A DNA stretch of 56,535 bases from Acidobacteriota bacterium (lineage in GTDB: Bacteria > Acidobacteriota > JAAYUB01 > JAMOQF01), in contig JAMOQF010000055.1 in assembly GCA_027064125.1 (NCBI GenBank), forward strand, positions 1-56,535, given 5' to 3'. This document shows, in pieces, positions 94 through 40,552 of the stretch. The position numbers were made by a program, and so were the translations under genes. The first letter of the stretch is position 1; every line of letters begins with the position of its first letter. The notes beneath the pieces are model-generated. The model made no database searches. It saw only the letters and a list, made by a program, of their open reading frames with translations, and was not told the DNA's origin.

Positions 94-388
94 AGCAACT
101 TTTCCGATTTACGACCTGTGATTTTAGATTTTTAGAGAAAAAATATGTAAAATTAAAGGTGTCAGGCAAAAGTTTAAGAGAAATTTAAGGGGCTTTTAGG
201 GTTGGCATGCAAAAATGAACTCAAAACTGGCAGAATTAAAGTCCTCTGGCAAAATCAATGATTTAATGATTTAAGGAAAATTCCTTAGATTGAGTTTAAC
301 TTCTTAAATAACTTGAAAAAGGAAGTTAGATATTTAAAAAAAATCCGACGATATTTGTAGAAAGTAAAGGAGATATTAATGTGTCTGG
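94..388 (+). repeat. Intergenic mosaic repeat locus R1: one GGTGTCAGGCAA word plus one ~100-bp unit
   Basis: GGTGTCAGGCAA at 158-169 is followed by a unit with GGCA/TGGCA boxes. Positions 185-215 match 20606-20636 at 30 of 31 nt. Confidence 0.75.
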
Positions 389-2898: not shown

Positions 2899-2907
2899 GA
2901 CATCCTC

Positions 2908-5619
2908 CTATTGGGAAATTTCCATTAGAAGTATTTGCAAATCTAATAAATTTAATTTCCCATCTCCATTTATATCTCCCACATCTTTAAGATAGTTGTT
3001 TAAATATAGATTTTCCACCAGGAGATTTTTAAGGAGCAGGACATCCTCTATGTTTTTATTTCCATCTCCATTTAGATCTCCAGTAAAGTTTTCAAGGGAA
3101 CATGTTGGGGTTATTTCTTCAATGCTTATATCGTCTATGTACCATCCACTTCCGCCATTTGATTGATCTGAAGAAGCTCTGAACCTGATATATATTGTAT
3201 TTCCACTGAAAGAAGATAGATTTATAATACTTTCCTTTAATTGGGTGGAAAGTGATCCTCCACTAAAGGCCATTCTGCCTCCAATGGGAGAACCATATTT
3301 ATCAGAAATTTTCATATTGTATCCATTTTGAGTGAAGTAATTGCCCAGGTCCTGAAAGTTGTTTCCTCCATCTGTTGATATTTCCACAACTCCTCCATCG
3401 TATCCAATTTCAAAGGAATAGGTATGGAAAAAGTGAAGGTAATACAATTTTTCATTTGAGAGATCTATGGGGCCTAAGGTTAAATAACTATCCTGAATCT
3501 GAGGTGCATCTATTGTAAAATAACTGTGGTTTTGGGAGTGAGAGTAGGGGGTTTCCTTCAATTGCCATTCATAATTCGTTGTTCCAGCCCCTATTGATAT
3601 CTGCCAGAGAGAACTTCCACCAGATTCAAGATCATCTTCAAATATGTTATTGGAAGATATTTCTCCAATTTGTAGTTCTTCTTGAAAGTTAAATTCAAGT
3701 CCATCATTGTAAACTTTTATAAGGAATTTTGCCTTTTCTCCACACTGAAAATCACTACCTATTTTAAATATTATGGAATTTTCACAATGTATAATTGCCC
3801 CGGTGTGAGGTAAATTGTTAATTGAAAGGAGATTATTTAAAATTTTTATTGAAGGGTCTTCTGGAATAATTTTTATAAAGATTTTTCCAGTATCTACTGT
3901 TCCTGAGTTGTAGAAACTTAAATCCATTTTGTAAATTTCACCCGGATCTGCCTTTTCATCTCCATTGCCATCCAATTCCGAAAAGTCTACATTGTATAGG
4001 TTTACGAAGGGACCGTGGCTTCTACAATCTCCTTCTGAAAGTATGCCCCTGTTGTAGAAAATATTACATATTAATCCGGTATGATTTCCATTGTATAAAT
4101 TTTCATCTGCTTCAATTATTGAGAGGGCTCCATTTCTAAAATTTGTGGATGGAGGCATATGGTATTGTCCCTCAAGTACAATGGAATCCGTTATTTCCTT
4201 GCCCAGTTTCATAAATATTTCTCTAAGGCAGGATGACCATATCTCCCCATCGTCATGGATTTCACCATCCATGTCATCCGGGTACTTTTTATTTGAATCC
4301 ACCCTTCTCAGACATGGTGGAATTGAATTTGAATAGGAGGTGGAATCCCACTCTCCAATACAAAATGGATCAAAACCATTTGCAACACTTATGTTATAGG
4401 TGTTTGAGAAGGCCCAGTAATCACCGAAGCCTTCTCCTATGGCTCCCGATTCTCCTGTGGTGACAAACGCGTTTTTATTTTGAAAGTATTGAATTGAGTG
4501 CCCCATTTCATGAAGAATTATGTCTGCATCCTCTGCGTCGTCAACTCCGCCATCTCCATAAGCTATATAAGGGCTGCTTCCAGCAGAAAAATGGGATTGA
4601 TCCGCTCCATTTACTCCGTGGGGATCCACAGAAAGGGGATAGGGATATATGTCAAAACCTAAGGATTTTAAATATCTACATGCTTTATCAATCCAGTAAT
4701 ATACCATGACTGCTTCAAATCCATCATCTTCTCTGTAGTAGTTGAAGGAACCATCCTGTGATTTTGGTGGTGCAATATATGGATATTCAATGTCTTTAAC
4801 TTTTACATTTGGTCCATTTAAAATAAATAGGTCATTTTCATCCTTAGATATATCTTTTAGTAAAACTTCTTGATATGCTCTTTCTGAAATGGCGTTATTA
4901 CTATCTCCCATATCCCTCAAGTTTATATTTCTGAGTGAATTTACTGGATTTGGATTGAATATTCTTCCATTTCCATCGAAATAATAGATATTTGAGGTTT
5001 CAAAAAGTATTTTCCCATCAAGGAGGGAAATAATATATTTTACATCTAATGGAGAATTTTTCTTTTTTAATTCCACATAAGTTGAAGGTATTAAATTGTT
5101 ATCCTTTCCTATGTAAAAAACTTTATAGAGGTTTTTGAGGGAAAATTTTCTGCCATATTTTTTTTCAAAACTTTTTTCCGCTATTTCCAGGGAATCAGAT
5201 TCATTTAATTTTTGTGGATGGGAGATTTTGGTGTTGAATACCTTTTCGAAAATTGAGTAGAGTTCTTTTTTATCGTTAATGTGGAGATCTATATAAGAAT
5301 TAAAAACTTGAATTCCCTTAAAATTTGCCTTAAATCTCAAATGAATTCCACTTAAACTTGTCCATTCCTCTTCAAGGTTGAAGTTTTTGTAAATTTTTTC
5401 TATTTTCAATGGGTATTTTAAATTTTCAAGAATTAGTCCCGGATTTAAAAGTTCATTATTTTGCAGTTTGTAATCTTTCAATTTAAGGAAGCATGGAAAA
5501 TTTTTCTCATAAGAAATTTTAATTTCTTTTCCTTCAAAATTTATAAACTTATAGTTTGAAGAAAATAAAAAGGTAATTGAGAGTAAAGTAGTAAATAGGA
5601 AAAAGATTTTTTTGAACAT
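2908..5619 (-). CDS. Secreted zinc metalloprotease (thermolysin clan, M36/fungalysin-like) with a C-terminal MAM/lectin-like domain and a dockerin-type module
   Basis: Signal peptide MFKKIFFLFTTLLSITFLFSS. HEMGH plus the downstream GEGFGDYWA (gluzincin third ligand). The C-terminus is GDLNGDGNKNIEDVLLLKNLL...GDINGDGKLNLLDLQILL, a duplicated calcium-loop dockerin signature. Confidence 0.75.
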   Translation of the reverse strand: MFKKIFFLFTTLLSITFLFSSNYKFINFEGKEIKISYEKNFPCFLKLKDYKLQNNELLNPGLILENLKYPLKIEKIYKNFNLEEEWTSLSGIHLRFKANFKGIQVFNSYIDLHINDKKELYSIFEKVFNTKISHPQKLNESDSLEIAEKSFEKKYGRKFSLKNLYKVFYIGKDNNLIPSTYVELKKKNSPLDVKYIISLLDGKILFETSNIYYFDGNGRIFNPNPVNSLRNINLRDMGDSNNAISERAYQEVLLKDISKDENDLFILNGPNVKVKDIEYPYIAPPKSQDGSFNYYREDDGFEAVMVYYWIDKACRYLKSLGFDIYPYPLSVDPHGVNGADQSHFSAGSSPYIAYGDGGVDDAEDADIILHEMGHSIQYFQNKNAFVTTGESGAIGEGFGDYWAFSNTYNISVANGFDPFCIGEWDSTSYSNSIPPCLRRVDSNKKYPDDMDGEIHDDGEIWSSCLREIFMKLGKEITDSIVLEGQYHMPPSTNFRNGALSIIEADENLYNGNHTGLICNIFYNRGILSEGDCRSHGPFVNLYNVDFSELDGNGDEKADPGEIYKMDLSFYNSGTVDTGKIFIKIIPEDPSIKILNNLLSINNLPHTGAIIHCENSIIFKIGSDFQCGEKAKFLIKVYNDGLEFNFQEELQIGEISSNNIFEDDLESGGSSLWQISIGAGTTNYEWQLKETPYSHSQNHSYFTIDAPQIQDSYLTLGPIDLSNEKLYYLHFFHTYSFEIGYDGGVVEISTDGGNNFQDLGNYFTQNGYNMKISDKYGSPIGGRMAFSGGSLSTQLKESIINLSSFSGNTIYIRFRASSDQSNGGSGWYIDDISIEEITPTCSLENFTGDLNGDGNKNIEDVLLLKNLLVENLYLNNYLKDVGDINGDGKLNLLDLQILLMEISQ

Positions 5620-5685
5620 ATCACTTCCTTATCTTTAAACTTTAAAATATTAAAGATTAAAAAATAGGCAAATTGTTTTAAAGAA

Positions 5686-6084
5686 CTACTTAATTTTTAC
5701 AAAAATAGCCTTCGCTGTGGCCGAAATTTCTCCATTGGGATTTAATATTTTTCCGGAAGTTTTAATAATTTTTCCTCTGTCCTCATCAACTTTCCCAAAA
5801 ATTGTAATCTCACTTCCAGCAAGTATTGGTTTTTTCAGGGAAACCTCTATTTTCCCCGTTGCTACTGCTTTTTTCCCCGTTTTTCTGAAGGCAGCGTGAG
5901 CCATGACTTCATCAAGTAGCATTGATACAAATCCACCGTGAAGTACATTTCGATATCCCTGGTATTCTCTTTTTACTTTAAATTTTGTGGTAATTTCCCC
6001 ATCAGGTGTTTCATCTATTTTTAGTTTAAGCCCTATTGGATTTTCCTTTCCACAACAAAAACAGTAGTTATCTTCTTCAAACAT
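5686..6084 (-). CDS. PaaI-family hotdog-fold thioesterase
   Basis: 132 aa with CFCCGKENPIGLKL...VLHGGFVSMLLDEVM, typical of PaaI/YbgC-type thioesterases. Confidence 0.75.
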   Translation of the reverse strand: MFEEDNYCFCCGKENPIGLKLKIDETPDGEITTKFKVKREYQGYRNVLHGGFVSMLLDEVMAHAAFRKTGKKAVATGKIEVSLKKPILAGSEITIFGKVDEDRGKIIKTSGKILNPNGEISATAKAIFVKIK

Positions 6085-6087
6085 ATC

Positions 6088-6744
6088 TTAAACTATTTTA
6101 TTTCCGGGAACCTTTTCCCAGTCTTTTAGAAATCTTTCTATTCCAATATCTGTAAGAGGGTGTTTTACCAATTTTTCAATTACTGCAAAGGGGATGGTAG
6201 CAATATCTGCGCCTATCATTGCTGCTTCGACAACGTGAAGGGGATGCCTTATTGAAGCCACTATGACTTCTGTATCAAAGTCATAATTTTCAAATATTTG
6301 AACAATCTGGCTCACGAGTTCCATACCATTGTGTTGTATGTCATCAAGTCTTCCCACAAATGGACTTACAAATGTTGCTCCTGCCTTTGCGGCCATAAGT
6401 GCCTGGATTGGATTAAATATAAGGGTTACATTTGTCATGATACCTTCAGAGGATAGTATCTTTACCGCTTTTAGTCCCTCCACTGTCATTGGAATTTTAA
6501 TAGCAATATTGTCAGCAATTTTTGCAAGTTCCATAGCCTCCTTGACCATTCCTTCTGAATCTAAACTTACAACTTCTGCACTTACAGGACCGTCGACCAA
6601 CTCGCAAATTTCAGAAATTAATTCTTTGAAGTTCCTATTTTCTCTCGAAACAAGCGTTGGGTTTGTGGTTACTCCATCTAAAATTCCATAAGATAGTGCC
6701 TTTTTAATTTGCTCAATGTTTGCTGTGTCAATAAAAAATTTCAT
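6088..6744 (-). CDS. tal: Transaldolase / fructose-6-phosphate aldolase (short TalC/Fsa type)
   Basis: [15 protein letters not shown]...GVTTNPTL...[10 protein letters not shown] is the canonical short transaldolase. I place the start at ATG 6742-6744, preceded by AAGGTG at a 6-nt spacing, rather than the GTG at 6753 that lies inside the RBS. Confidence 0.9.
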
Positions 6745-6899
6745 ACTATTCACCTTAGAAATTTTATAAAGTTAATAATAAAATAGGTAATACTCTTAAG
6801 TCAAGATGTTATGATTTCCCAAAATCCGTGATTGCTATATAAAAGGCTCTGTAAATGTGTTAAAATAAAGTAATTTTAAAAAATTACCCTTAACCTAAA

Positions 6900-7835
6900 A
6901 GGGAAACACACCATAAACTTAGTGTTTGAGGGATTGTAGGAAAAGATATTTTCATTTATTAACTACATGATTAAATTTCAGGCAGTGTAAAATTAATTGT
7001 GTCAAAAAGGAGAAATCTCTTTTCGGGAAAAAGGGATTAAAATTAACCTTGATTGAAAATTCCCTAAAAGGACTATACCTATGAGTGACTTAATTTTTAC
7101 CTGGGTTTCAGAACTTTTCAAAAGGTATCAGGCAAGTAATAGGTAATACAGGTAAGTAAGTAAAAAAAGAAAGATGGAAGGGGACAGACCTAAATCTTGA
7201 AAATGTGTCAGGCAAAAATTTAGATGGCTTTTGAGGGGGAGGCAAATAAAAAAAGGATAAAATTCTGGCAAAAAGAAAATCCTTCTGGCAGAAATCAAAT
7301 GATTAAAATTTTTTTCTTTCTATAAGCCTTTAGGGGTATTTAGGGTGGGCAGATAGGAAGAAATTAAATTCTTGCAAAGATGAAATCCTTTGGCAAAAAA
7401 CAACAATTAAAGCAAATGCCCTTTTTCATCCTATAAACCTTTGGGGGTATTAGGGGTAGGCAAATAAGGAAAAAACTTAAAACTGGCAATACCTAAAAAT
7501 TTTCTGGCAAAAATTAACAATTAAAATAAAATCCCTTTTCTCTTCTATAAGCCTTTTATGGGCCTTATGGGCCTTTTGGATCGGGTAAGTAAGAGGAAAA
7601 ACTAAATTCTGGCAAAGATAAAATCTTTTAGCAAAAGTCAGCGATTAAATAAAATTCTTTTTTACCCTATAAATCTTTAAAGGATATGGAAAAAGGGACA
7701 GACCTGAATTTAAAATTGGACAAGTAAGAAAAAGGAATGAAGGGGAATTGTTCTCATACAAAATTGAAAGACTTCTTTTCTTTTATTTTAACAAATCTTA
7801 TTTACTAAATAGAAAATTTCTTTAATCTTTACTTA
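6900..7835 (+). repeat. Intergenic mosaic repeat locus R2: left boundary module, word motifs, four tandem units, right boundary module
   Basis: The left module 6903-7123 is homologous to 39507-39590 and, inverted, to 33640-33800. GGTATCAGGCAA is at 7124, GGGGACAGACCTAAA at 7180 and GTGTCAGGCAA at 7205. Units span 7216-7668. GGGACAGACCTGAA is at 7695. The right module ~7775-7835 is homologous to ~40220-40262. Confidence 0.85.
7216..7668 (+). repeat. Tandem array of four degenerate ~104-122 bp units
   Basis: Unit heads CTATAA(G/A)CC lie at 7320, 7431, 7545 and 7667 (periods 111, 114, 122). Each unit carries G-rich TTTAGGGG..TAGGG..GGCA followed by two (T)CTGGCA boxes, spaced about 25 and 20 bp, and ends in CCCTTTT. 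Confidence 0.85.
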
Positions 7836-8072: not shown

Positions 8073-8906
8073 GTGGATAAAACTTATTCCAATTTTATTA
8101 ATACTTTTCTTTCCCTTTCGCCTGATCAGAGGGAGGAAGTAGCCTTGAAGAGGCACTGGGTGAAACTTGAGATCCCCTATATTCAGCAATATTCTGATAT
8201 GATACCTACTAATCTTGAAAGGAAGATGCCACCTGAGGTACTGGATAGGGTTTTAAAGGCTGCAGAACAAAAAGAGATGGAATTTCCATTTGATAAATTT
8301 AAAAAGATAGAGAGATGGATTCCTTCTGAAAAGGACATGAAGTTTATGCTTGGCAGATACGCTCCAGATGAAAATGAAGGTTTAAAGTTTGGTGATGGTG
8401 ATGGTGTTAACATGTGTGATCTTTCAATGGCTATAAAGGGAGATGTCCTTCTTGTTCACAATGGTTTTGTTCCATGGGGTTGGCATAGTCATGCTGGGAT
8501 TTTCTATGGAGGTACTGGAGTTTATTCCACTATAGAATCTGATTGCAATCAGAATTACTTTGGAGATCCCCATCCCGGAGTTCATTTTGAGCCAGTTTCC
8601 CACTGGAATAATGATTACGACTATTGTAGAATTATGAGGGTTATAACGTGGCCACTCAGTACAAGTTATCGTAGTAAGGCTGCTGAATATGCAAGAAAAC
8701 AACTTGGCAAGCCATACAACTTCAACTGGTTATGGAAATGGGCAACTGATAAATTTTATTGTTCTCAACTCGTTTGGGCTGGATATTACAGAACTTCAAA
8801 ATGGTATGCCCGTATTAATATTGATGCTGTTCCATCGGATACATGGGTTGCTCCAGATGAATTGTATGCTTCCTGGAGGACCTGGACAGTTACATCAAGT
8901 TGGTAA
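8073..8906 (+). CDS. Permuted papain-like (NlpC/P60 superfamily, YaeF/YiiX C92-like) amidase
   Basis: The order is His then Cys: GDVLLV...HSHAGIFYG comes upstream of GKPYNFNW...DKFYCSQLVWAGYY, as in circularly permuted C92 enzymes. The start is uncertain: GTG 8073 is the first canonical start, yet the frame is open upstream through a hydrophobic stretch (ILSFHPVLILFIFSAW). Confidence 0.6.
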   Translation: MDKTYSNFINTFLSLSPDQREEVALKRHWVKLEIPYIQQYSDMIPTNLERKMPPEVLDRVLKAAEQKEMEFPFDKFKKIERWIPSEKDMKFMLGRYAPDENEGLKFGDGDGVNMCDLSMAIKGDVLLVHNGFVPWGWHSHAGIFYGGTGVYSTIESDCNQNYFGDPHPGVHFEPVSHWNNDYDYCRIMRVITWPLSTSYRSKAAEYARKQLGKPYNFNWLWKWATDKFYCSQLVWAGYYRTSKWYARINIDAVPSDTWVAPDELYASWRTWTVTSSW

Positions 8907-10035: not shown

Positions 10036-11052
10036 ATGGATAAGAATGTAAAAAAAAGAGTTATCTTTATATTTAAACTTGTTGTAACAGTTCTTCTCCT
10101 CTTTTATCTTTTTCACACCAAAGGGGTTAACTTAAAAAAGTCAGTTGAAATTCTTGCAAGATCAAATTATATATATTTTTTCCTTTCTCTTTTTCTTCTT
10201 CTTTTTGGACAATTTATATGTTCCTACAGGTGGAAGGTTATCTTAAAAGCCATGGATATTGACATTTCTCTTTTTAGATTATTTCAGTTTTATTTAATAG
10301 GTATGTTTTTTTCCCTCTTTTTGCCTTCAATTGTGGGAGGGGATTTTGTGAAAATATTTTATGTAAAGGAAGAAAGTGGAAAACCCATATCCTATATAAT
10401 TGCTTCAATATATCTTGAAAGGGCTACCGGATTTTTCTTTTTGATACTATATGGGATATTTGGTGCCTTGATGTATAAAATAAATATAACTTCAAAGGAA
10501 ATTCCACTGTTGAGTAATTTTGGTATCAGAGAAATTGATATTGTATACATTCCCATTTTCTTTTTGCTTCTCTTTGTGTTGGTAAACATAGTTGTTTTTA
10601 CATCAGGACTTTACAATATAGCCATAAAGATGCTTAATAGGCTAAATCTGAAAAAGTTTTCGGAAAAAATTTCAATACTGCACGATGCCACAAGGATTTT
10701 TAGAAATAAACCTTCTGTGTTGATAGTTCCCCTTGTTATTTCTGCGATAAATATTTTTTTTGTAAGTGTGGAAAACTATTTAATAGGTATTGGAATAGGA
10801 ATAAAGGCTTCCTTTTATGCCTATATGATTATTATATCGCTTATGTCCACAGTGGTTATGCTTCCAATTAGTATAAATGGGATTGGTTTGCGCGAAAATA
10901 TATTTGTGGTCCTTTTTTCTCTTATTGGAGTTGATCCCAATAGTAGTTTTTCTCTATCACTTATATCCTTTTTAGTTGTTGTCCTTTCAGCTCTGCCGGG
11001 GGGAGTTGTGTATTCACTGCTTAAAACAAAACCAGTGCCTGAAGAGATTTAG
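10036..11052 (+). CDS. Flippase-like / lysylphosphatidylglycerol-synthase TM-region family (UPF0104) membrane protein
   Basis: Polytopic membrane protein. The N-terminal KLVVTVLLLFYLF...FICSYRWKVIL resembles the LPG_synthase_TM family as I remember it. Confidence 0.65.
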   Translation: MDKNVKKRVIFIFKLVVTVLLLFYLFHTKGVNLKKSVEILARSNYIYFFLSLFLLLFGQFICSYRWKVILKAMDIDISLFRLFQFYLIGMFFSLFLPSIVGGDFVKIFYVKEESGKPISYIIASIYLERATGFFFLILYGIFGALMYKINITSKEIPLLSNFGIREIDIVYIPIFFLLLFVLVNIVVFTSGLYNIAIKMLNRLNLKKFSEKISILHDATRIFRNKPSVLIVPLVISAINIFFVSVENYLIGIGIGIKASFYAYMIIISLMSTVVMLPISINGIGLRENIFVVLFSLIGVDPNSSFSLSLISFLVVVLSALPGGVVYSLLKTKPVPEEI

Positions 11053-11053
11053 T

Positions 11054-11332
11054 ATGGATAGATTTTTTTCCCCTTCAAAAAAGTTTATTGTAAAAAAAAT
11101 ATCCTCGGGCTATATTTTTATACCTCTGGAAAAATTTGAATTAGATGGAGTGTATTCCACAAATGAAGTGGGTTATATAATATATTCCCTTGTGGAAAAA
11201 AAATATACTTTTGAAAAAATCGTAAAATTTTTATGTGATAAATATAATGTGAAAGAAACCCATATAAGAGAAGATGTGAGAAATTTCCTTGAAAATATGA
11301 AAAAAATTGGGATAATTGAAGAAAGAAAATAA
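11054..11332 (+). CDS. PqqD-family small protein (RiPP recognition element-like peptide chaperone)
   Basis: 92 aa from ATG 11054. The pattern ...NEVGYIIYSLVEKKYTFEKIVKFLCDKYNV..E..REDVRNFLENMKKIGII matches the PqqD/RRE winged-helix signature. The longer track ORF from 10976 overlaps the preceding gene and is not needed. Confidence 0.6.
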   Translation: MDRFFSPSKKFIVKKISSGYIFIPLEKFELDGVYSTNEVGYIIYSLVEKKYTFEKIVKFLCDKYNVKETHIREDVRNFLENMKKIGIIEERK

Positions 11333-11348
11333 ATATGAGGAGTTTTTT

Positions 11349-14300
11349 ATGGGGAAAAAAATATTTTTGCCAGTTATCTTTTTCTTTTTGTTTTTTTACA
11401 TTTTTTCAATGCCAATTATCAGATATCCTGCACCATCTCCTGATGGGATGTGGATTGCCTTTACATATCAGGGAGATATCTGGAAGGCTAAAATCGATGG
11501 TACCTTTCCAATGAGACTTACAGATAGTGAATCCTATGATGCTTATCCTGTTTGGTCTACTGATGGGGAAAAGATAGCCTTTTCTTCTAAAAGAAATGGA
11601 AATTTTGATGTTTTTGTAATGGATAGTGATGGAAGAAATTTGAAGCAAATCACCTTTTTTTCAAGGAATGACTATGTACTTGATTGGGATAGTTCTGGAA
11701 ACATTTTCTTTTCATCCCAGAGGGAGTTTACAAAATATTATGGATCCATCAATATTTACAGAGTTTCCTCAAAGGGAGGTACTCCCAAAAGAGTTTTGAA
11801 AAATGACACCTCCTATGGAAAAATAAGTCCTGATGGAAGATATCTACTCTATGTTAAAGGGAGATTTCCCTGGTGGAGACTTCACTATAAAGGCTCTGCA
11901 AATTTTGAAATATATCTTTATGATTTTAAAAGAAAAGAACATATAAGGATGACAGATTACAGGGGAAATGACAATTGGCCCATCTGGTCTCCCGATTCCA
12001 AATCCTTTTATTTTGTTTCAGAAAGGGATGGAAGTATAAATCTTTATAAAATGGATTTAAACACTAAGGAAATTAAAAGGATTACCAATTTCAAAGATTT
12101 GAGAATAACATTTCCATCTTCAAGCAGGAATAAAAATCTTCTTGCTTTTGAAAGAATGGGAAAAGTATATATTCTGGAAAAAGAAAATAAGTTGAGGGAA
12201 CTCAAATTAACTTTACCTGAGGATTTGAAGAGAAATTCTATTGAGAAATTGAGAAAAAGTAGTGATGTCTCAGAAATAGCGGTTTCTCCAGATGGTAAAA
12301 TGGTTGCCTTTGTAGTAAGGGGAGATATATTTGTTTTGAGAAGGGATATAAAAAATTTTAAAAAGGCCAAAAATATTACAAATTCCTGGTGGAGGGAGAA
12401 AAATATTTCCTTTTCTCCCGATGGTAAGAAAATACTTTTTATCTCCGATGAAAATGGAAATGACGATATTTTTACAATTGAGCCAGAGGATGGGAAGTCC
12501 TTTTACGCTTCATTAAAATATAAGATTACACCTATTCTTAAAACTCCTGAAGATGAATTGTTTCCAAAGTATTCCCCTGATGGGAGTAAAATTGCCTTTT
12601 TAAAGGCATCTGGAAATTTGTACACCATGGAGAGCAGCGGAGAAAATGTAAAACTGATTTATAAGTGCTGGAATCAACCTGATTATTCCTGGAGTCCCGA
12701 TGGAAAGTGGATAGCCTTTTCAAAATATGATGGGGACTATAACGCAGATATCTTTATAATGCCTTCAGGTGGTGGAAATGCCATAAACATTACTGAGCAT
12801 CCTGACAACGATATTCATCCCATCTGGTCAAGGGATGGAAAGTTTATTGTGTTTAGTTCCAAAAGAAATGCAGATTATAAGGAAGATAATGTAGATGTCT
12901 ACATGGTGTACCTCACAAAGAGGGATTCTGAAAGGAGTAAAGAAGAGTGGGAAGAGTTGTGGGTTGAAAAAAAGAGTGTAAAAAAGGAAGAGGATAAGAA
13001 AGAAAAGAAGAAGGTAGAGGTAAAAATTGATTTTGAGGATATTTCCTTTAGAGTAAAGAGAATTACTAAATTAACGGGCACTCAGATAGCCCTCGCTACA
13101 TCTCCTGATAGCAGAGAAATCCTCTTTTTATCAGATCACACGGGAAAGACACTTTTGTATAAAATAGATATATTTGGGAAAAATCTGAAAAAGGTTTCAA
13201 ATTCTGAACTTTTAGATTTTGATTCTGAAGAGAGTATTCCAAATGTTGCAATCTGGAATAGTAAGAATAAAAATATTTACTTTATTTCAAAGGGTGGATT
13301 TATCAAAAAGGTATCTGGAAATAAGGAAAAATCAATTCCCTTTCTGGCAAAACTTGTAATAAATCATAAACTTGAGAGAAGGCAGAAGTTTTTAGAGAGT
13401 TGGAGACTCATAAATGACTATTTTTACGACCCCAATTTTCACGGATATGACTGGAAGAGTTTTAGAAATAGGTATCTTCCCCTTGCTGAGAGTTGTGATA
13501 CGATTGAAGATTTTGACGATGTTGTGGATATGATGCTTGGTGAGATAAATGCATCCCACATGGGTATTTATTATCTTAAGAGGCCTAAAGGAGCAGTACA
13601 CACCGGTTTTCTTGGAATTTTGCCCGATGAGAACTACAGCGGAATGGGTATAAAGATTTTAGATGTTTTGAAAAATACACCTGCTTACAGGGATGAAAGC
13701 AGGCTTTATCCAGGAGATATAATTTTATCTGTTGATGGTAAAGAGATAAAACCAGATGTAAATTTTTACTCCCTCTTTGAAGATAAAGTTGGTGAGAAGG
13801 TTTATATAAAAGTTAAGGGAAAGGATGGAAATTTAAGAAATGTGATAATAACTCCAACTGGATTTATGACTGTGAGGCAGGCATATTATGAAAAGTGGGT
13901 AAGTGATAGAAGAGAACTTGTCCACAAATTGAGTAATGGAAGGATTGGATACATACACATTCAGTCCATGGGGCAGCCAAGTCTTGAAAGATTTGAGATG
14001 TTGCTTTATAAAGAGGCACATGATAAGGATGGATTAATAATTGATGTTAGAAATAATGGTGGTGGATGGACAACAGATTATATTCTTGCAATGCTGATGG
14101 TTAGAAATCACGCATATACGAAGGGTAGAGGTTCATGGGAGACTGGCTATCCACAGGATAGAAGGCCACTATATGCCTTTACAAAGCCAATTGTTGCCAT
14201 GTGTAATGAAAATTCCTACAGTAATGCCGAAATATTTTCCTGGGCTATAAAAACTTTAAAGAGGGGTCCCCTTGTTGGCAATCAGACCTTTGGTGCTGTG

Positions 14301-16136: not shown

Positions 16137-17138
16137 ATGAAAAAATATTTAAAAAAGTTAAAAATAGGAAAACTTGAAGTATATCCCAATATTTTTCTCG
16201 CTCCCATGGCGGGAATCACAACAAAGTATTTCAGGGAAATTTTAATTTCCCTTGGTGGATGTGGGCTTACTTTTTCAGAATTAATAAGTTCTGAAGCCCT
16301 TATAAGAAATGGGAGGGATTCGTTTAAGATGATGGAAAGGGGTAGGGGAGAGTTTCCATATGCGGTCCAAATATATGGATTTAATCCAGAACACATGGGT
16401 GATGCCGCTAAAATTATAGAAGATGGTGGATATGGAGATTTAATTGATATAAATGCTGGGTGTCCTGCAAGAAAAGTGGTGAAAAATGGTTCTGGTTCAG
16501 CCCTTTTAAAAGATTTGCTCCTCTTTGAAAGAATAATTACAACTGTTAAAAAAAGGATTTCTTTACCAGTGTCTGTAAAGATGAGATCTGGATTTAATAC
16601 TCCCATATTTCTTGAGGCAGGGAAAATTGCGGAAAATTCTGGTGCGTCTTTTATTACTCTTCACCCAAGATTGAGAAGTGAAATGTTTTCAGGTAAATCT
16701 AACTGGGAATATATAAGAGAATTAAAGGAAAGTGTTTCAATACCTGTTGTTGGAAATGGAGATATTTTTTCTCCAGAAGATGGAGTTAGGATGTTTGAGA
16801 AAACGGGTTGCGATGCCATAATGATAGGAAGAGGTATTACCCGCGATCCCTTTCTAATAAAAAACACCTATGATTTTCTTAAAAGTGGTTCATATCTTTC
16901 TGCCTCCATCTGTGAGAAAATTGAAATATTATTAAAAATACTCGATGCAATAGATAAAAACTATCCAGATAAGGCTAAATGTGGTGAGATGAAAAGATAT
17001 TCTTCTTACTTTATACACGGATTTAATGGGGCATCAAAGGTTAGATCCCACATATATCTTCAAAAAAAGAGTGGAGATATAATTTCATTTGTGAAAAAAT
17101 TATATGAGAAAATTAAGGAGGAGGAAAATTGTAAATGA
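16137..17138 (+). CDS. dus: tRNA-dihydrouridine synthase
   Basis: FLAPMAGITTKYFR..., DINAGCPARKV and TLHPR motifs of the Dus TIM-barrel family. Confidence 0.9.
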   Translation: MKKYLKKLKIGKLEVYPNIFLAPMAGITTKYFREILISLGGCGLTFSELISSEALIRNGRDSFKMMERGRGEFPYAVQIYGFNPEHMGDAAKIIEDGGYGDLIDINAGCPARKVVKNGSGSALLKDLLLFERIITTVKKRISLPVSVKMRSGFNTPIFLEAGKIAENSGASFITLHPRLRSEMFSGKSNWEYIRELKESVSIPVVGNGDIFSPEDGVRMFEKTGCDAIMIGRGITRDPFLIKNTYDFLKSGSYLSASICEKIEILLKILDAIDKNYPDKAKCGEMKRYSSYFIHGFNGASKVRSHIYLQKKSGDIISFVKKLYEKIKEEENCK

Positions 17139-18659: not shown

Positions 18660-20975
18660 TGGGGGGCTAAAAGGTGTCAGGCAAGATCTGGATAAAAATG
18701 ATAAAAAGAAAAGGTGTTAAGCTAAGATAATCGAATTCCTCCCATAATCCCCACCAATTGATTTGTAGGAAAGAAAGAAAAAGATTGAAAGTTCAGGAAA
18801 TTCAGGAAAATTCAAGATTTAGGGAAAGAAAAAATGGTGTCAGGCAAGTAGTAAAAAAAGAAGGTGGGTAGGGACAGACCTGAACTTGGGAAAAAATTTT
18901 AAAAAGTATCAGGCAGAAATACCCCCCACAATCCCTACCGTGGGTTTATAGAGAGGAAAGAGAAAGGTTTTTTCTTTTTTGTATGGCACTATTTGTTTTC
19001 AGAAATTTTTAGAAGCTTTTGAGGGAGGTAAATGAGAAAACAGATTAAATATTGGCAGAGTTAATAATTTTTTGGCAAAAGCAATGATTAAAGTAAGTCC
19101 CTTTTTCATCCTATAAACCCTTAAGGGGGTGTTAGGGGTAGGCAAATTAAAAATAAATTAAAGAAATGGATGGGGACAGACCTGAATTTGAGGAATTTGA
19201 GAAATGAATTTAAGAATTAGAATTAAAGGTGTCAGGCAAAATTTTAGATAAAAAGTGTCAGTCAGAAATTTAAATGGCATTTAGGGTAGGCAAACATAGG
19301 AAAAACTCAAAACCGGCAGTCACTTAAAATTTTCTGGCAGAAATCAAGCAATTAAGGCAAACCATTTTTTTCTTTCTATAAGCCTTTAGGGGGCATTTAG
19401 GGTGGGTAAGTAAAAAAAAGAAAATGGAAGAGGGGACAGACCTAAAAATGAGAAATGTCATGTAAAATTAAAAGGTGTCAGGCTAATAGGTAATAGGTAG
19501 AAAGTTTAAAATCTTCTGGCAGAGACTGACAATTAAGATTAACCCTTTTTATCCTATAAACCTTCAGGAGGTATTCAGGAGATGGCAAATAGGATAACAA
19601 ATTAAAATCTTAGAAAGATAAAGTCTTCTGGCAAAGATCAAACAACTAAGCAAAATCTCTTATCCTCCTATCAGCCTTTAGTGGGCATTTGTGGTGGTAA
19701 ACAAAAGAAAAACTTAAAACTGGCGATGACTCTAAATTTTTTAGTAAAAGTCAAGGATTTAAAAAATCCTTTTTTCCTTCTACAAACTTTTAGGAGGACT
19801 TTAAGAATGGAAGAGCGGAAGAGGAAACAGACCTGAGTTTAAGAATAAATTTAAAAAAAATATCAGGCAAATAAGTAGGACAAGTAAGACAGGTAAGTAA
19901 GTAAAAAAAAGAGAAGATGGGTAAAGGTGGGTAGGGACAGACCTGAAGACCTGAAGATAAGATTAAAAAAGGTGTCAGGCAAAGTTTGGAAAATTTGGAA
20001 TTTGGGAAATGGTGTCAGGCTAAAAGGCTGAAAAGCGTCTGACCCCCTCACAATCCCCACCATGGGTTTATAGAAAAGACAAGAAGAATTAAAGATTTAG
20101 AATTTTGTTCCAGTCAAAAAATCTAAGAATTTAAAAAGAATTTAAGTGGACTTTAAGGAAGACAAATAAAAAAAATCAAATTTTGGCAAAAAGAAATTTC
20201 TTTAGCAAAAGGCAACAATTAAGTTCATCCCTTTACTTTCCTATAAACCTTCAGGGGGCTTTCAAAGTGGACAAGCAAAAAGCAAATTAAATTCAGCTAA
20301 ATAAAATTTTTTAGCAGAAATAAAATGATTAAAATTTTTTGAAAAAACCAGGTGATTAAAGAATAATTCTTTTTGTCTTCTATAAATTTTTTTGGATAGG
20401 CTAAAAAGGTGTCAGGCAAATAAGTGAAAAATAAGTAAATAAATAAGGAAATAAGTAAGGTAAGTAAGTAAAGAGAAAGTGTCAGGCAAAAAATTTAGGC
20501 GGCATTTGGAGAGGCAAGAAAAAATACCTAAAACTGGCAATAACTTAAAATCTTCTGGCAGAAATCAAACAATTAAAGTAAAACCATTTTCTTCTCTATC
20601 AGCCTTTAAGGGGCTTTTGGGGTTGGCATGCAAAAAATAAACTAAAAACTGGCAATAACTTAAAATCTTCTGGCAGGGACAAACAATTAAAGAAAAATCC
20701 CTTTTCTTCTCTACAAACCTTCAGGGGGTATTTAGGGGAGGCAAGTAGGAAAAGAAATTGAATTCTGACAGGAGTGATAAAGTCTTCTGGCAAAAGTCAG
20801 GCAACGAGGAAAGCGCAGAAAAGTTTTTGTATCTCTTTTTAAAAGACAAAAATTTAAAGGCTTTCCTCAATGAGTTTAAGATTTTCTTCTTCTACCCTGA
20901 AAGGAGATGTTTCAAGAGCCTTACACAATTAAGTTGACATTATCAAACCTTGCACAATTAACTTTACATTACCCT
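18660..20975 (+). repeat. Intergenic mosaic repeat locus R3: the largest array, ~2.3 kb and gene-free
   Basis: At least 11 GTGTCAGGC(A/T) words (18673, 18836, 18906, 19238, 19255, 19474, 19860, 19971, 20011, 20408, 20480). Five GGGACAGACCTGA words (18871, 19172, 19432, 19823, 19934). About 12 full or truncated units, with heads at 19111, 19376, 19554, 19668, 19780, 20241, 20380, 20596 and 20711. Inverted unit heads at 18739, 18922 and 20043. Confidence 0.85.
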
Positions 20976-21093
20976 TTTTTCCTTTATTGGAATATTTTGT
21001 CAATTATATGAAAAGTATGAAAATATACATTTAGGTTAAAAATGGTTGTGTATATAGAATCTCAAAAAGTTTTTAATGGGAATTTAAGGAGTA

Positions 21094-21567
21094 TTATTTA
21101 AACAATTTTTCAACAGATAGAACTTTATAATATTTTACACTTTTTGGTAATTTAACTTCAGCAGTTCTACCAACTTTTGTGTTTAGAAGTCCTTTGGCAA
21201 GGGGTGCATTTATAGATATGACTTCTATCCCTTCCCATTCATCAAATTCTCCAAGAATGGCAAATTCCATCTCTTCCCCTGTATCTTTATCCAGTACCCT
21301 TACTTTTTTACCTATTGTTACGATATTATCAGGTAGATCCATTTCCTCAATCAATGCCACATTTGCAAGTCTCTCTCTAATTTTTAACTCTTCAATTGCG
21401 AGCATTTCCTTTCTCTCTTTTGCTGCGTCATATTCAGCATTTTCTGATAAATCTCCATAAGATGCTGCAATTTGAAGGTCTTTTGCCACACTATATTTTT
21501 CCTTTTGTATATCTTGAAGTCTTTTTTGAAATTTTTCATATGTTTTTTTTGTCATATATATGGGCAT
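21094..21567 (-). CDS. greA: Transcription elongation factor GreA
   Basis: N-terminal coiled coil plus DLSENAEYDAAKE and a C-terminal FKBP-like domain. Start placed at ATG 21565-21567 (MPIYMTKK), with GGGAG 6 nt upstream. Confidence 0.9.
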   Translation of the reverse strand: MPIYMTKKTYEKFQKRLQDIQKEKYSVAKDLQIAASYGDLSENAEYDAAKERKEMLAIEELKIRERLANVALIEEMDLPDNIVTIGKKVRVLDKDTGEEMEFAILGEFDEWEGIEVISINAPLAKGLLNTKVGRTAEVKLPKSVKYYKVLSVEKLFK

Positions 21568-33039: not shown

Positions 33040-33800
33040 TATAGGAACAAAAACTTCTTAAGCATTTTCTTCGTTTGGGAAAAACCTCCATTTGTATGTA
33101 ATCTTTTGATTCCTTAAAACACCTTTTTCCACCCTAAACCTCATTCACTAATCCCATCCAGACTGTTTTTAGAAAGGGAAAAGTTTTACTTTAACTCTTC
33201 GTTTTTTAATTTTTCTTTTTTGCTTAGTACTAAATTTTTAGTTTTTCTCATTCTTTCCTATAAACCCATAGTGGGGATTGTGGGGAAGTGTTTTTAGTCT
33301 GACACCTTTTATTTTTATCCAGATCTTGCCTGACACTAATTTTAATCAAATTCAGGTCTGGCCCCACTTCTTTTTTTCTTACCTGCCCAACACAACATAT
33401 TTGCCTGACACCTTTTGACCTAACATAACATTTTTAGCCTGGCACCTTTCGGCACCTTTCTTAGTATCATTTTCAAGTCTTTTTCAGGTCTTCAGGTTTT
33501 TCCCAATTCCCCCACCAATTTTTCCATCTTTTGTGCTGGGATTCTTAACTCAATTTCTCTAAATGTGGTTCTGTAAGTTCTTTTGTAATAACCCTTTATT
33601 CCAGTTTAATATCTCATAAGGTATTTTTCCTTTTTTTCTAATAAAATTTTTTCAATCAAATCCTTGAAAAGTTTCAAAATACCACGTAAAAATTAAACAT
33701 GCTCATTGTGTTTCACACCGTTTTGGGAAGTTAATTTTAGCCTCCTTCTTTATGATGTAAAAATTTCTTCCTCCTGACACAATTAGTCGTTAAATTATTT
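33040..33800 (-). repeat. Intergenic mosaic repeat locus R4: the same family in inverted orientation
   Basis: The reverse complement carries TTGCCTGACAC (33326, 33401), TTCAGGTCTGGCCCC (33351) and CCTATAAACCCATAGTGGGGATTGTGGGG (33257-33285). Positions 33311-33336 are the exact reverse complement of 18674-18699. Positions 33640-33800 are the inverted counterpart of the R2 left boundary module. Confidence 0.85.
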
Positions 33801-39437: not shown

Positions 39438-39509
39438 ATGTATGAAAACATAATAAATAAAATTGGTGATGATGAGCAATATGAAATAGTGTCTTTTCTT
39501 GGAAAATGA
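39438..39509 (+). pseudogene. N-terminal remnant of a Ser/Thr kinase paralogue
   Basis: MYENIINKIGDDEQYEIVSFLGK* aligns with the N-terminus of the intact kinase, MRTFIQELEKSGQYKILKLIGKGG. The frame breaks inside the glycine loop exactly where the repeat boundary module begins. Confidence 0.65.
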
Positions 39510-40262
39510 TACATACCATAAATTTTCTGTCTTGGGGATTATAAGAGAAGAAATTTTCATTTATCAACTCCATAATCAAATTTTATAGCAAATATCTGGT
39601 TTAATTCATATCTTTTATTTTAGATTTAATTAAAGGATTAATTCCCTATGTTTTATGTATTATGTAGTTTAAAGAATGCTACTTGAAAAGGCAGATTAAA
39701 TATAGACAAATAAAAAATAAATTAAATTTAGGCAAAAATAAAAAAGCTTTTTACAAAAGGCATTGAATTTAAGTATTCCCCCTTTCCCTTTTATAAACTT
39801 TAAGGGAGAATTTAGGGATGAGAATAAATTTTAAAAAAGTGTCAGGCAAGAAATTTAAGGGGCATTTATGGGGGGCAAGGAAAAGAAAAACTTAAAACTG
39901 GCAAGACCTAAAATTTTTTTGGCGAAAATTAATGAATAAAAGAAAATCTCTTTTTCCTTCTATAAACATTCTGGATGGCATCTGGGTAGCAGGTAAGAGA
40001 AGAATTTAGTATTAGGCGAGAAATCTGGTGCATGAAATTAGAATTGGTGTCAGGCAAGAATTGGATAAAAAGAAAAGTGTCAGGCAGAAAATTTAAGAAA
40101 ATTTAATAATGAAAATTTAAAAAGGCAAATAAGAAAAGAAGCAAAAAAGAGTGGTGAAAATTTAATTCTTTAAGTCGGGACCAGTGATTAAGTAAACTTT
40201 TCTCATATAAGCATATTTTTTCAAATTATCTTAATAAATCTTATTTACCAAACGAAAAGTTT
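39507..40262 (+). repeat. Intergenic mosaic repeat locus R6, lying between the two kinase-paralogue remnants
   Basis: The left module 39507-39590 is ~75% identical by eye to 6903-6985. GTGTCAGGCAA(G) words lie at 39840, 40046 and 40077. A unit spans 39851-39960. The right module ~40220-40262 is homologous to ~7790-7835. Confidence 0.8.
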
Positions 40263-40264
40263 TT

Positions 40265-40552
40265 TTAACTATCCTTTTAATTTTTATTTTATGCTATTAT
40301 ATAGAGAAAGGGAATTTAAATAGATCAGATAAATATTTAAGAAAAGCAAGAGAGATATTTGGTGAATATGATAGAGATATACCTGAGAAAATTTTTTTAA
40401 TGGGAATGGTGGATGTCTATTACTCAAAAGCAAATAGGGGTAAAATGAGTTATATTACAGAACTCTTGGCGAAAAATAAATTTTATAGTATAAAATTTAA
40501 AAAGTTATTTAATCTTTTTAAGAATCATAGATTGTCTCGGGAGTTGCCATGA
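40265..40552 (+). pseudogene. C-terminal remnant of a Ser/Thr kinase/TPR paralogue
   Basis: Open frame without a start: ...CYYIEKGNLNRSDKYLRKAREIFGEY...ELLAKNKFYSIKFKKLFNLFKNHRLSRELP*. It aligns with the last ~85 aa of the intact kinase (AYYLKNGNFKKSGELMEISKRMVSKY...KLINSRKYYRANFLNLFNMFKNYKLSLFPAR*). Its TGA overlaps the kinase ATG (ATGA). Confidence 0.7.

Follow-up and report, generated by a model that had tools for sequence, protein, structure and literature searches.

Layout of the tal–C92 spacer

The divergent tal and C92-amidase genes of this acidobacterium, a Thermotomaculum-like organism whose C92 protein is 76% identical to T. hydrothermale TTHT_1854, are separated by a spacer that carries a modular repeat array, R2, one of several in the window (the whole 56,535-nt stretch of contig JAMOQF010000055.1 analysed here; Table 1). 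Between 6903 and 7827, its modules follow one another as L, M, W1, W2, W1, a head-less unit, three full units of ~111 bp, a truncated head, W2 and R. The two W1-type words are GGTATCAGGCAA, from 7124, and (T)GTGTCAGGCAA, from 7204/7205; the two W2-type words are GGGGACAGACCTAAA, from 7180, and GGGACAGACCTGAA, from 7695. CTATAA heads start at 7320, 7431, 7545 and 7667, and the C's of the GGCA/TGCA boxes fall at 7350/7375/7394 and 7461/7487/7508. All of these words, heads and boxes had been picked out in an initial annotation made from the sequence alone, and every one is present.

Two features of that annotation required redrawing: Firstly, the unit run consists of a head-less copy (7219–7318) and three full copies (7320, 7431 and 7545); the fourth unit it proposed, at 7667, amounts to a head stub. 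Secondly, the single left module it placed at 6903–7123 resolves into two modules, L and M. Only the L-core is common to array R6 (6903–6977 matching 39508–39582, with the R-core at 7785–7827 matching 40227–40270), and only M recurs inverted in array R4 (33715–33786, local score 35 versus 17 ± 2.5 for shuffles). M is also found at loci L058, L060, L063 and L066. Tandem periodicity is detected over 7311–7556 (TRF, period 114, score 268), and unit 4 owes its extra length to a 9-bp internal tandem repeat, TTATGGGCC, present in 2.7 copies at 7556–7579.

Table 1. Modules of R2 and other arrays in the window, with the neighbouring tal promoter
Feature	Position	Strand	Remarks
Minimal array, W1 and one head-less unit	158..285	+	Between convergent genes
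tal promoter TTGACT-18-TATTAT	6775..6804	-	Outside the repeat; kept in array-free sister species
L module, 5' cap (L-core)	6903..6977	+	8 copies by nhmmer
M module	6993..7121	+	Second half of the 'left module' of the initial annotation; recurs inverted in R4
W1 word GGTATCAGGCAA	7124..7135	+	
TAAG-rich tract, 3' of W1	7136..7170	+	TTAC/TAAG indel among strains
W2 word GGGGACAGACCTAAA	7180..7194	+	
W1 word starting the unit run	7204..7215	+	In place of unit positions 1–9
Unit 1, head-less	7219..7318	+	Profile positions 10–105; subtype cluster 41; fused to W1
Unit 2, full, 111 bp	7320..7430	+	Subtype cluster 42; absent in strain L006
Unit 3, full, 114 bp	7431..7544	+	Subtype cluster 25
Unit 4, full, 122 bp	7545..7666	+	Subtype cluster 40
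Truncated unit head CTATAAATCTTTAAAGG..., ~25 nt	7667..7693	+	Running into W2
W2 word GGGACAGACCTGAA	7695..7708	+	End of unit run
R module core, 3' cap, consensus AATAAATCTTATTTACTnAAnAGAAAATTTTTTTAAC	7785..7827	+	10 nhmmer copies, array-final each time
Array R3, 11 units with W1, W2 and E	18673..21094	+	3' module X (20820–21094); no L or R
Array R4: W1, M, W1, W1, W2, W1, W1, E	33248..33786	-	Inverted; no full units
Array R6: L, head-less unit, W1, head-less unit, W1, W1, R	39508..40270	+	

Repeat vocabulary, caps and distribution

The family was surveyed in 244 kb of DNA from this species, comprising the window and 22 further loci and representing ~10% of one genome; these loci were picked for containing the repeat. 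A profile built from the units of R2 retrieves at least 41 strand-consistent arrays and 131 units from this DNA (E-values down to 1e-24), and array DNA makes up ~4.7 kb, or ~8%, of the 56.5-kb window. GGGACAGACCTGAA, allowing up to two mismatches, was observed eight times against 0.21 expected, and GGTGTCAGGCAA 24 times against 1.9. The full vocabulary consists of the caps L and R, the modules M and X, the words W1 (GGTGTCAGGCAA) and W2 (GGGGACAGACCTGAA), the ~111-bp unit in at least 14 subtypes, and E, which is an inverted partial unit. These items are combined under a polar grammar, L? [W1 (E W1)? head-less unit, full units, truncated head, W2]n W1? R?, in which the modules of an array are co-oriented with near-perfect strand consistency, and the resulting arrays are found in all types of intergenic DNA. 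Identity is 66.1% between adjacent units and 65.8% between units of different arrays, and as neighbours are no closer than distant copies, recent local slippage alone would not give this pattern. Unit subtypes are common to several loci (the four units of R2 are four different subtypes), and two consecutive units of L049 and L051 are 93–94% identical.

Other arrays share the boundary modules of R2, as had been anticipated for a bounded element: nhmmer recovers eight copies of L, all eight at the start of an array, and ten copies of R, all ten at the end, each co-oriented with its own array. The bounded-element description itself stands in so far as L and R occur only at the polar ends of arrays, but just two of 15 complete arrays (R2 and R6) have both. 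Of the arrays whose 5' end is intact, five of 26 carry L, and of those whose 3' end is intact, eight of 27 carry R; the 2.5-kb array R3 lacks both, and at L061 (8070–8260) L is joined straight to R with no array between them. Since few arrays with intact ends carry them, the caps are optional items of the vocabulary and not obligatory termini. L compared with reverse-complemented R did not rise above shuffles in three of four pairs and revealed no terminal inverted repeat, and a target-site duplication is not definable because the corresponding spacers of the sister species are too diverged for the junctions to be placed.

A promoter scan places an outward sigma-70-type promoter, TTAATA-18-TACAAT, on the minus strand of L (6962..6933). 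The copy of L in R6 has TTGATA-18-TATAAT (11/12 matches) and that in L061 has TTGATA-18-TAAAAT, and the conserved blocks of L alignments are the -35 element (TTGATA/TTGGTG), the 18-nt spacer and the -10 element (TATAAT). From these motifs we infer that L acts as a portable sigma-70 promoter facing outwards, such that arrays bearing L, and perhaps R, probably alter the transcription of neighbouring genes as a side effect. Separately, R would be at best a weak promoter or terminator, its top candidate being TTTACT-17-TAACTT (7/12 matches) and hairpins being absent; neither a promoter or terminator call nor a fold signal was obtained in the R module.

In sister species that share this gene order, three orthologous spacers are short and free of arrays. 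The tal–C92 spacer measures 181 bp in the syntenic sister scaffold L069 versus ~1.26 kb here, the ColV–GreA spacer, with R3, 5 bp in L069 versus 2.5 kb here, and the DUF5916–iPGM spacer 62–72 bp in sister species versus 845–1600 bp here. The inserted DNA is flanked by conserved core promoters, those of tal, C92 and iPGM. Profiles of the unit, L, R, M and E have 0 matches in 163 kb of relatives, the repeat pattern has 0 matches in GTDB species-representative genomes, 0 in viral contigs and none in a plasmid collection, and a literature search on the accessions, or on Thermotomaculum together with repeats, returned nothing relevant. On the sequences compared, the repeat family is lineage-specific, one lineage bearing arrays and its closest relatives being without them.

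Strain variation and competing explanations

Several candidate roles for the arrays as coding or transcribed sequence were considered. The unit consensus has stop codons in all six frames, and two small ORFs (one of 21 aa in M, the other, MKIS..., on the reverse strand of L) were discarded as their starts and frames are not conserved across copies. RNAalifold predicts zero base pairs on either strand for 57 full units, folds of L, M and R are no better than those of shuffles (z-scores ~0), and Rfam gave nothing at gathering thresholds and sub-threshold noise otherwise; a structured RNA, having neither a consensus fold nor an Rfam family, was rejected. Unit junctions (ATTAAA...CTATAAA) were similarly discarded as promoters, position 6 of the -10 being A or G and never T, and the scan making no call. 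It is improbable that the arrays are transcribed from L to R on their purine-rich strand as long leaders or non-coding RNAs, with repeated single-stranded motifs that would titrate an RNA-binding protein like a CsrB-type sponge. The array strand is indeed purine-rich (A 40%, G 18% versus T 28%, C 14%), resembling the sense strand of genes here, and arrays lean towards the orientation of the downstream gene (17 versus 10) and the majority gene strand (18 versus 9), but these trends are weak and many arrays sit in convergent spacers. Moreover, no promoter in L faces the array, the conserved one facing away from it, promoter-like sites in R2 (10) are not above shuffles (5.9 ± 2.6), and conserved secondary structure, covariation and Rfam family are all lacking.

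Replication and CRISPR biology offer further readings of direct repeats with short boxes. Almost no credence can be given to R2 as a replication origin, a set of plasmid iterons or a centromere-like partition site. Direct repeats with A-tracts and boxes at regular spacing would be apt for such a role, but the copy number, no fewer than 41 arrays over 244 kb of chromosomal DNA, effectively refutes it. The arrays flank tal, rplM, greA, iPGM and similar genes with no rep, dnaA or par genes, their unit is 111 bp and not 17–22 bp, plasmids yielded no match and syntenic relatives have no arrays. Very improbable, too, is an origin as degenerate CRISPR-derived DNA (an orphan leader, trailer or repeat remnants) or as a low-complexity assembly artefact. 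In its favour, a cluster of five W1-type words in the sister species L090 adjoins the end repeat, itself degenerate, of a genuine CRISPR array; that array, however, looks entirely different from the repeat arrays, its repeat occurs in none of the 92 other loci, cas genes were not seen, and the units have no unique spacers, every part of them being homologous between copies. As to artefact, independent assemblies (NCBI, ENA, JGI and Logan) that drew on different samples and assemblers reproduce the same arrays base-for-base, which argues that the arrays are not products of assembly.

Near-identical strains vary in unit number and in module content: one 111-bp unit of R2 is absent in L006. R3 differs between strains by indels of +29 bp and +178 bp, with just six substitutions in 2509 bp, and a single indel, of 130 bp by blastn coordinates or 134 bp in the MAFFT alignment, separates the iPGM arrays of two strains. 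The strains compared are 99–100% identical outside indels, whose borders bear direct repeats of 8–29 nt. The gene upstream of the iPGM array differs among strains, with the breakpoint inside the array.

We consider it probable that R2 is one array of a new, lineage-specific family of non-coding intergenic mosaic repeats, similar to NIME and BOX elements and remodelled by recombination. The arrays would act as DNA, rather than as structured RNA or protein, and would grow and shrink by slipped-strand mispairing or by unequal recombination at equivalent positions of homologous modules. Their spread to new spacers may have come about by gene conversion or ectopic recombination; alternatively, a recombinase encoded elsewhere, for which no candidate was seen in the 244 kb, might recognise the W2/W1 junction words. 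Arrays at different loci exchange unit subtypes, and arrays are breakpoints of chromosome rearrangement. No multi-copy or transposase-like gene was found among 174 ORFs in the 244 kb, and Pfam scans found no transposase or recombinase domain in the proteins of the window or in ten array-flanking proteins.

Positions within the unit are very unequally conserved, C1 and T91 reaching 100% and others standing near 45%, and consensus G/C positions are kept like A/T positions (0.76 versus 0.77) in a genome that is 68% AT; a binding function therefore fits these data at least as well as passive repeats do. Across the 131 copies, the C's of the boxes lie at consensus positions 31, 57 and 77, which sets them 26 and 20 bp apart, and exact GGCA is found at the three boxes in 63%, 44% and 49% of units. 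One orthologous array is 92–100% identical between two co-occurring populations while its flanking genes are 76–87% identical, and such an excess over the genes could mean constraint rather than junk; in the L055/L061 case, an apparent array identity of 96% stands beside 83% for the genomes. Between strains, substitutions nominally affect 4.2% of conserved versus 6.9% of other unit positions (p = 0.02), a contrast dominated by a single alignment in which paralogous units were paired (L087/L089, 30% mismatch).

It is a real, if minor, possibility that the arrays are functional protein-binding platforms, on which a lineage-specific nucleoid-associated or regulatory protein would organise or insulate intergenic DNA or be titrated. 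The candidate boxes would be two TTTAGGG motifs 10 bp apart, three (A/T)GGCAA motifs 26 and 20 bp apart, CTATAA and ATTAA. Position-specific conservation among otherwise saturated copies, retention of G/C boxes despite the AT-rich genome, strict polarity and grammar, the conservation of the orthologous array above its flanking genes, and the location of R ahead of a co-oriented gene in eight of ten determinable cases all favour such a role, and RNA structure offers no other account of the conservation. Against it, sister species of the same gene order have no array at three loci, arrays lie beside unrelated housekeeping genes and also in convergent spacers with nothing to regulate, and strains tolerate the loss or gain of whole units. 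In addition, each box has an exact GGCA in only 44–63% of units, the boxes, spaced by 26/20/65 bp, show no helical phasing, and the sampled DNA yielded no candidate for the binding protein. This reading retains the iteron-like idea of the initial annotation minus replication, and is compatible with mosaic, mobile repeats. Resemblances to KOPS (GGGNAGGG), IHF and Pho-box motifs are each one mismatch or one spacing off.

A more specific and unlikely reading is that the W2/W1 junctions are the sites of a lineage-specific site-specific recombinase, which would shuffle W1-units-W2 cassettes into polar arrays with promoter-bearing L and R caps and with TTTAGGG and GGCAA boxes that would bind a partner protein. 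Were it true, intergenic DNA of a regulatory or architectural kind would be built by a system resembling integrons or NIMEs, and an active, enzyme-driven genome-architecture system would have invaded one vent acidobacterium after its split from the sister species.

Significance and comparison with known systems

Relatives of this organism, including Thermotomaculum hydrothermale with its 2.3-Mb genome, have tightly packed spacers, and yet one lineage devotes ~8% of the window to rule-governed non-coding repeats. The array-free sister species, with identical gene order, provides a natural experiment for comparison, through which it becomes possible to address: 1) the invasion of a streamlined genome by mosaic repeats; 2) structural variation and rearrangement at strain level; 3) delivery of portable promoters to housekeeping genes. 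The arrays also have practical consequences: they break metagenome assemblies, many contigs of this species ending within them, and they are ready-made VNTR markers for tracking strains of an uncultured hot-vent acidobacterium. They are probably a new example of bacterial mosaic repeat DNA, and not a replication or RNA element.

Among known systems, iterons are likewise direct repeats with regularly spaced short boxes, but the present arrays differ from them in copy number, genomic distribution, unit length and the lack of an adjacent initiator gene; unlike MITEs and other non-autonomous transposons, they have no terminal inverted repeats. Mycobacterial MIRUs are tandem intergenic units of 40–120 bp with copy-number polymorphism among strains, to which the unit-sized strain indels seen here correspond. 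MIRU loci, however, number in the tens, lie inside operons and have short ORFs coupled to flanking genes, whereas the units of this family number in the hundreds, occupy spacers of all types, have stops in all frames and are joined by non-unit modules under a grammar. The BIMEs and REP clusters described by Gilson, Bachellier and co-workers are reportedly intergenic mosaics of a few motifs, some of them in variable tandem number. The REPs of enterobacteria and pseudomonads are imperfect palindromes in alternating orientation, mobilised by RAYTs; the arrays described here have no palindromes and a uniform orientation, and no RAYT-like gene was seen in the 244 kb.

BOX elements of Streptococcus pneumoniae and S. 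suis enclose tandem modules of variable number between a 5' and a 3' cap and vary in length among strains, and their caps can affect neighbouring expression, with S. suis also using alternative larger caps (115–133 nt) around the same interior (PMC3049150). Their modules are named boxA, boxB (the tandem copies) and boxC, with boxE/boxF-capped variants. R2, R6 and the iPGM array have the same L-interior-R arrangement, and the 'empty' L-R pair in L061 is a further parallel. BOX caps, though, resemble the terminal inverted repeats of insertion sequences and the element folds as a stem-loop RNA, neither of which applies here; boxB is 45 bp long while the units here are 111 bp and of many subtypes, and most arrays here are without one or both caps.

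NIMEs of Neisseria are non-coding intergenic arrays in which short, conserved and relatively G+C-rich words separate many families of RS repeats, 50–150 bp in length, and they vary in repeat number and length among strains and are tied to recombination and rearrangement (PMC1797815). Their word, dRS3, is an inverted repeat of 20 bp (ATTCCC-N8-GGGAAT) that a phage recombinase is known to target, whereas W1 and W2 are non-palindromic. Unlike in NIMEs, all modules here are co-oriented, the words flank runs of units and not every unit, and L/R caps are an option; no sequence similarity links the two and no recombinase was found. As in NIMEs, W1 and W2 delimit runs of ~111-bp units whose subtypes, at least 14 in number, are common to several loci, and strains differ by indels of 29, 111, about 130 and 178 bp and by a rearrangement breakpoint inside the iPGM array. 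The present family is probably akin in general type to the NIMEs of Neisseria, the BOX elements of streptococci and the BIMEs of enterobacteria.

Modules and grammar of the arrays

The R2 array, which lies between tal and the C92-family peptidase gene, is built of pieces that recur, in repeat searches, in five further intergenic spacers of this window. Its tandem structure has a period of 114 at 7311-7556 (TRF score 268), and within the window both short words occur far more often than expected (GGGACAGACCTGAA, 8 observed vs 0.21 expected; GGTGTCAGGCAA, the word W1, 24 observed vs 1.9 expected); neither a tRNA nor an Rfam family was found anywhere in the window. On reading the sequence, every word and unit head named in the initial annotation proved to be present at its coordinates, and the module order is L (the 5' cap), M, W1, W2, W1, a head-less unit, three full units, a truncated head, W2 and R (the 3' cap). 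The unit run, originally described as four tandem units, thus ends in a head stub of ~25 nt at 7667, and what had been taken as a single left module is two, L-core and M: of these, L-core alone is shared with R6, and M alone with R4, where it is inverted. In the R6 array the order is L, head-less unit, W1, head-less unit, W1, W1, R; R3 strings modules of these kinds together over 2.3 kb but has neither cap, its 3' end being formed by module X, which is also found behind arrays or R modules at seven or more further loci (L047, L049, L052, L053, L054, L063, L065).

A pattern scan of metagenome contigs yielded 22 loci, every one from metagenome Ga0256842, and these belong to the window's species: assemblies carrying the window's tal encode an iPGM protein 100% identical to that of one such locus. 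Over the 244 kb of window and loci together, profiles built from R2 found 131 units, 8 L, 10 R and 6 M modules and 22 inverted partial units (E). With the C's of its three boxes at positions 31, 57 and 77, the unit consensus, CTATAAACCTTTAGGGGCaTTTAGGGTAGGCAAATAA-A-rich-TAAAATCTGGCAA-AATTAAAATtTTCTGGCAAAAAtCAACGATTAAAgtAAAtTCCTTTTT, extends to the whole family the spacings of 25-26 and 19-21 bp first noted in R2; these are no multiples of the helical turn, and only 44-63% of units carry an exact GGCA at a given box. One polar grammar, its modules all co-oriented, holds in every array: an optional L; one or more blocks of W1 (optionally followed by E and W1), a head-less unit, full units, a truncated head and W2; then an optional W1 and an optional R. 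Unit subtypes number at least 14 and are common to different loci; R2's four units belong to four of them, and adjacent units are 66.1% identical vs 65.8% for units from different arrays. The arrays are thus no recent local duplications but mosaics, with pieces exchanged between loci.

A short terminator hairpin, GGTGCCAGGCACC plus a T-run, is stereotyped in the clade, and W1 resembles a broken, non-pairing derivative of it, a hint that this delimiter word may have arisen from a terminator. The TAAG/GTAA tract of R2 shows a 3-4-nt step between strains.

Coordinates of features in the window and in compared loci
Locus	Feature	Positions	Strand	Remark
Window	R2 array	6903-7827
Window	tal gene	6088-6744	minus	flanks R2, divergent
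Window	C92-family peptidase gene	8073-8906	plus	flanks R2, divergent from tal
Window	module X	20820-21094		recurrent 3' module, contains ...ATGTTTCAAGAGCCTTACACAATTAAGTTGACATTA...
Window	TAAG/GTAA microsatellite-like tracts	7136-7170, 19873-19905, 20418-20471		after W1 words
Window	dockerin type I proteins	2908-5619, 33883-36747, 43710-44315		one fused to M36 peptidase
Window	LPG-synthase-like gene	10036-11052
Window	terminator hairpin	56015-56026, 33435-33446
L069	terminator hairpin	2553-2575, 2704-2726, 16850-16866
L090	CRISPR array	11178-13527		span includes the W1-type word cluster; repeat GTTTCAATTCCTTATAGGTAGAGTGGAAAT
L090	W1-type word cluster	11276-11440	reverse	GCCTGACACC
L087/L088	iPGM array region	4403-6000
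L089	iPGM array region	2002-2845
L055	orthologous array and flanks	1-2755
L061	orthologous array and flanks	1936-5340

Several familiar classes of sequence can be set aside. The unit consensus has stops in all six frames, and two small ORFs, in L and M, are not kept in other copies, where the start codon or the frame is lost, so the arrays are not coding DNA. Nor are they structured RNA: folded as an alignment, 57 units yielded no base pairs whichever strand was taken, the folds of L, M and R stayed at the level of shuffled sequence, and the modules have no Rfam match. A replication origin or iteron set is excluded by at least 41 arrays lying by unrelated genes (tal, rplM, greA, iPGM, a SurA-like gene, methyltransferases and others) in spacers of all three orientations, divergent, tandem and convergent, a CRISPR array by the absence of unique spacers, a classical MITE by L and R not being inverted repeats, and an assembly artefact by the reproduction of arrays in NCBI, ENA, JGI and Logan assemblies.

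Caps and a predicted outward promoter

L always stands at the start of an array and R at its end, and locus L061 holds an 'empty' L-R pair. Most arrays, however, lack one or both caps, L being present at 5 of 26 intact 5' ends, R at 8 of 27 intact 3' ends and both in 2 of 15 complete arrays; the earlier picture of a bounded element therefore fits R2 and R6 but fails for the family as a whole. The conserved blocks of L (TTGATA/TTGGTG, an 18-nt spacer, TATAAT), read on the strand opposite to that of the array, form a predicted canonical promoter that points outward. At three loci a divergent gene lies ahead of it (tal, rplM, DUF465), at four the 3' end of a convergent one, and such varied neighbours argue for a portable promoter rather than any single gene's native one; tal retains its own conserved promoter, nearer the gene than that of L. 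R has a 45-nt A+T-rich core that gave no promoter, terminator or fold call, and in 8 of 10 determinable cases the next gene is co-oriented with it.

Gain in one lineage and turnover between strains

The C92 protein shares 76% identity with TTHT_1854 of the acidobacterium Thermotomaculum hydrothermale, and for ribosomal protein L13 the nearest relative among the species-representative genomes scanned reaches only 64%. A sister-species scaffold, L069 (79% C92 identity, 31% G+C), is collinear with window 1138-21585, with a tal-C92 spacer of 181 bp vs ~1.26 kb in the window and a ColV-GreA spacer of 5 bp vs ~2.5 kb; the tal and C92 core promoters align on both sides of the extra DNA. Between DUF5916 and iPGM, sister species have 62-72 bp vs 845-1600 bp of array here. 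Since five module profiles have, in addition, zero matches in 163 kb of relatives, the arrays were gained in this lineage and are not ancestral regulatory DNA.

In relatives, the repeat vocabulary has a single trace, five W1-type words clustered in L090 (sister species GCA_054037515.1). The cluster comes after the tricorn gene's terminator hairpin and abuts the degenerate end repeat of a genuine CRISPR array of at least 25 copies that reaches the locus end. The window's species has two tricorn-protease paralogues, and these, with the three dockerin proteins, are unusual for an acidobacterium.

Strains 99-100% identical in flanking DNA show module-sized differences inside arrays. Unit number does vary between strains, a possibility raised at the outset: R2 has lost one 111-bp unit in one strain, R3 has gained segments of 29 bp and 178 bp against just 6 substitutions over 2509 bp, and the iPGM array has one ~130-bp indel (130 bp by blastn coordinates; 134 bp in alignment). 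The indels are bordered by 8-29-nt direct repeats, as expected from slippage or unequal recombination. Point divergence within R2 is 1.5%, in line with the 0.3-4.3% measured for genes nearby. Between two strains the LPG-synthase-like gene diverges by 4.3%, its neighbours by 0.3-0.8%, which suggests a local recombination import.

Loci L087/L088 and L089 come from strains of one species (iPGM 99.8% identical) that differ in the gene upstream of the iPGM array, so that a breakpoint of chromosomal rearrangement lies within this array. The ancestral neighbour is retained in one strain, which has DUF5916, then W1, a head-less unit, two full units, W2, W1 and R', then iPGM, without L; other strains have DUF465 (minus strand), an array running from L to R', and iPGM. 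These layouts argue that inter-array recombination rearranged the chromosome and introduced the L cap.

In two co-occurring populations (L055 and L061) an orthologous array is 92-100% identical while its flanking genes are 76-87% identical at the DNA level, which might come from introgression through recombination, from strong constraint or from a short contig being chimeric. An array better conserved than its flanking genes would also be in keeping with units that serve as putative binding arrays for a lineage-specific protein, as would the position-specific conservation of units and the G/C boxes kept in an AT-rich genome; sister species, however, dispense with arrays and unit loss is tolerated, and we consider this reading, the main alternative and compatible with a mosaic one, rather unlikely.

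A repeat family and its known counterparts

The arrays probably represent a new intergenic mosaic repeat family of the NIME/BOX/BIME kind, in which DNA-level modules would have spread through the spacers of a single Thermotomaculum-like lineage, slippage and ectopic recombination would reshuffle them, and at least one predicted outward promoter would be carried along. The abundance of the modules, their grammar, their presence in this lineage, their changes between strains and the lack of any coding for RNA or protein are established by the sequence data, whereas we infer this recombinational mechanism of array growth and exchange; no transposase or recombinase was found in the part examined (~10% of the genome), terminal inverted repeats are absent, and no target-site duplication is definable, the sister spacers being too diverged.

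No comparable repeat system in Acidobacteriota was found in the literature searched. NIMEs combine a short G+C-rich word with many families of 50-150-bp repeats, strain dynamics and a link to recombination (PMC1797815), all of which the present family shares; the NIME word is palindromic, and its recombinase is known (PMC1797815), whereas the family described here is wholly non-palindromic and polar. BOX elements consist of a cap, a variable tandem interior and a second cap (PMC3049150), a layout followed here by R2, R6 and the L-capped iPGM array; they also show length polymorphism, as the present arrays do, and effects on neighbouring genes (PMC3049150), which are probable for the L-bearing arrays, but differ in their TIR-like caps and folded RNA (PMC3049150). 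From both, the present family is set apart by the lack of sequence similarity, a larger vocabulary and optional caps. We rate the general kind, that of NIMEs and BOX elements, as already known, and the sequence family, its polar non-palindromic grammar and its occurrence in this phylum as new.
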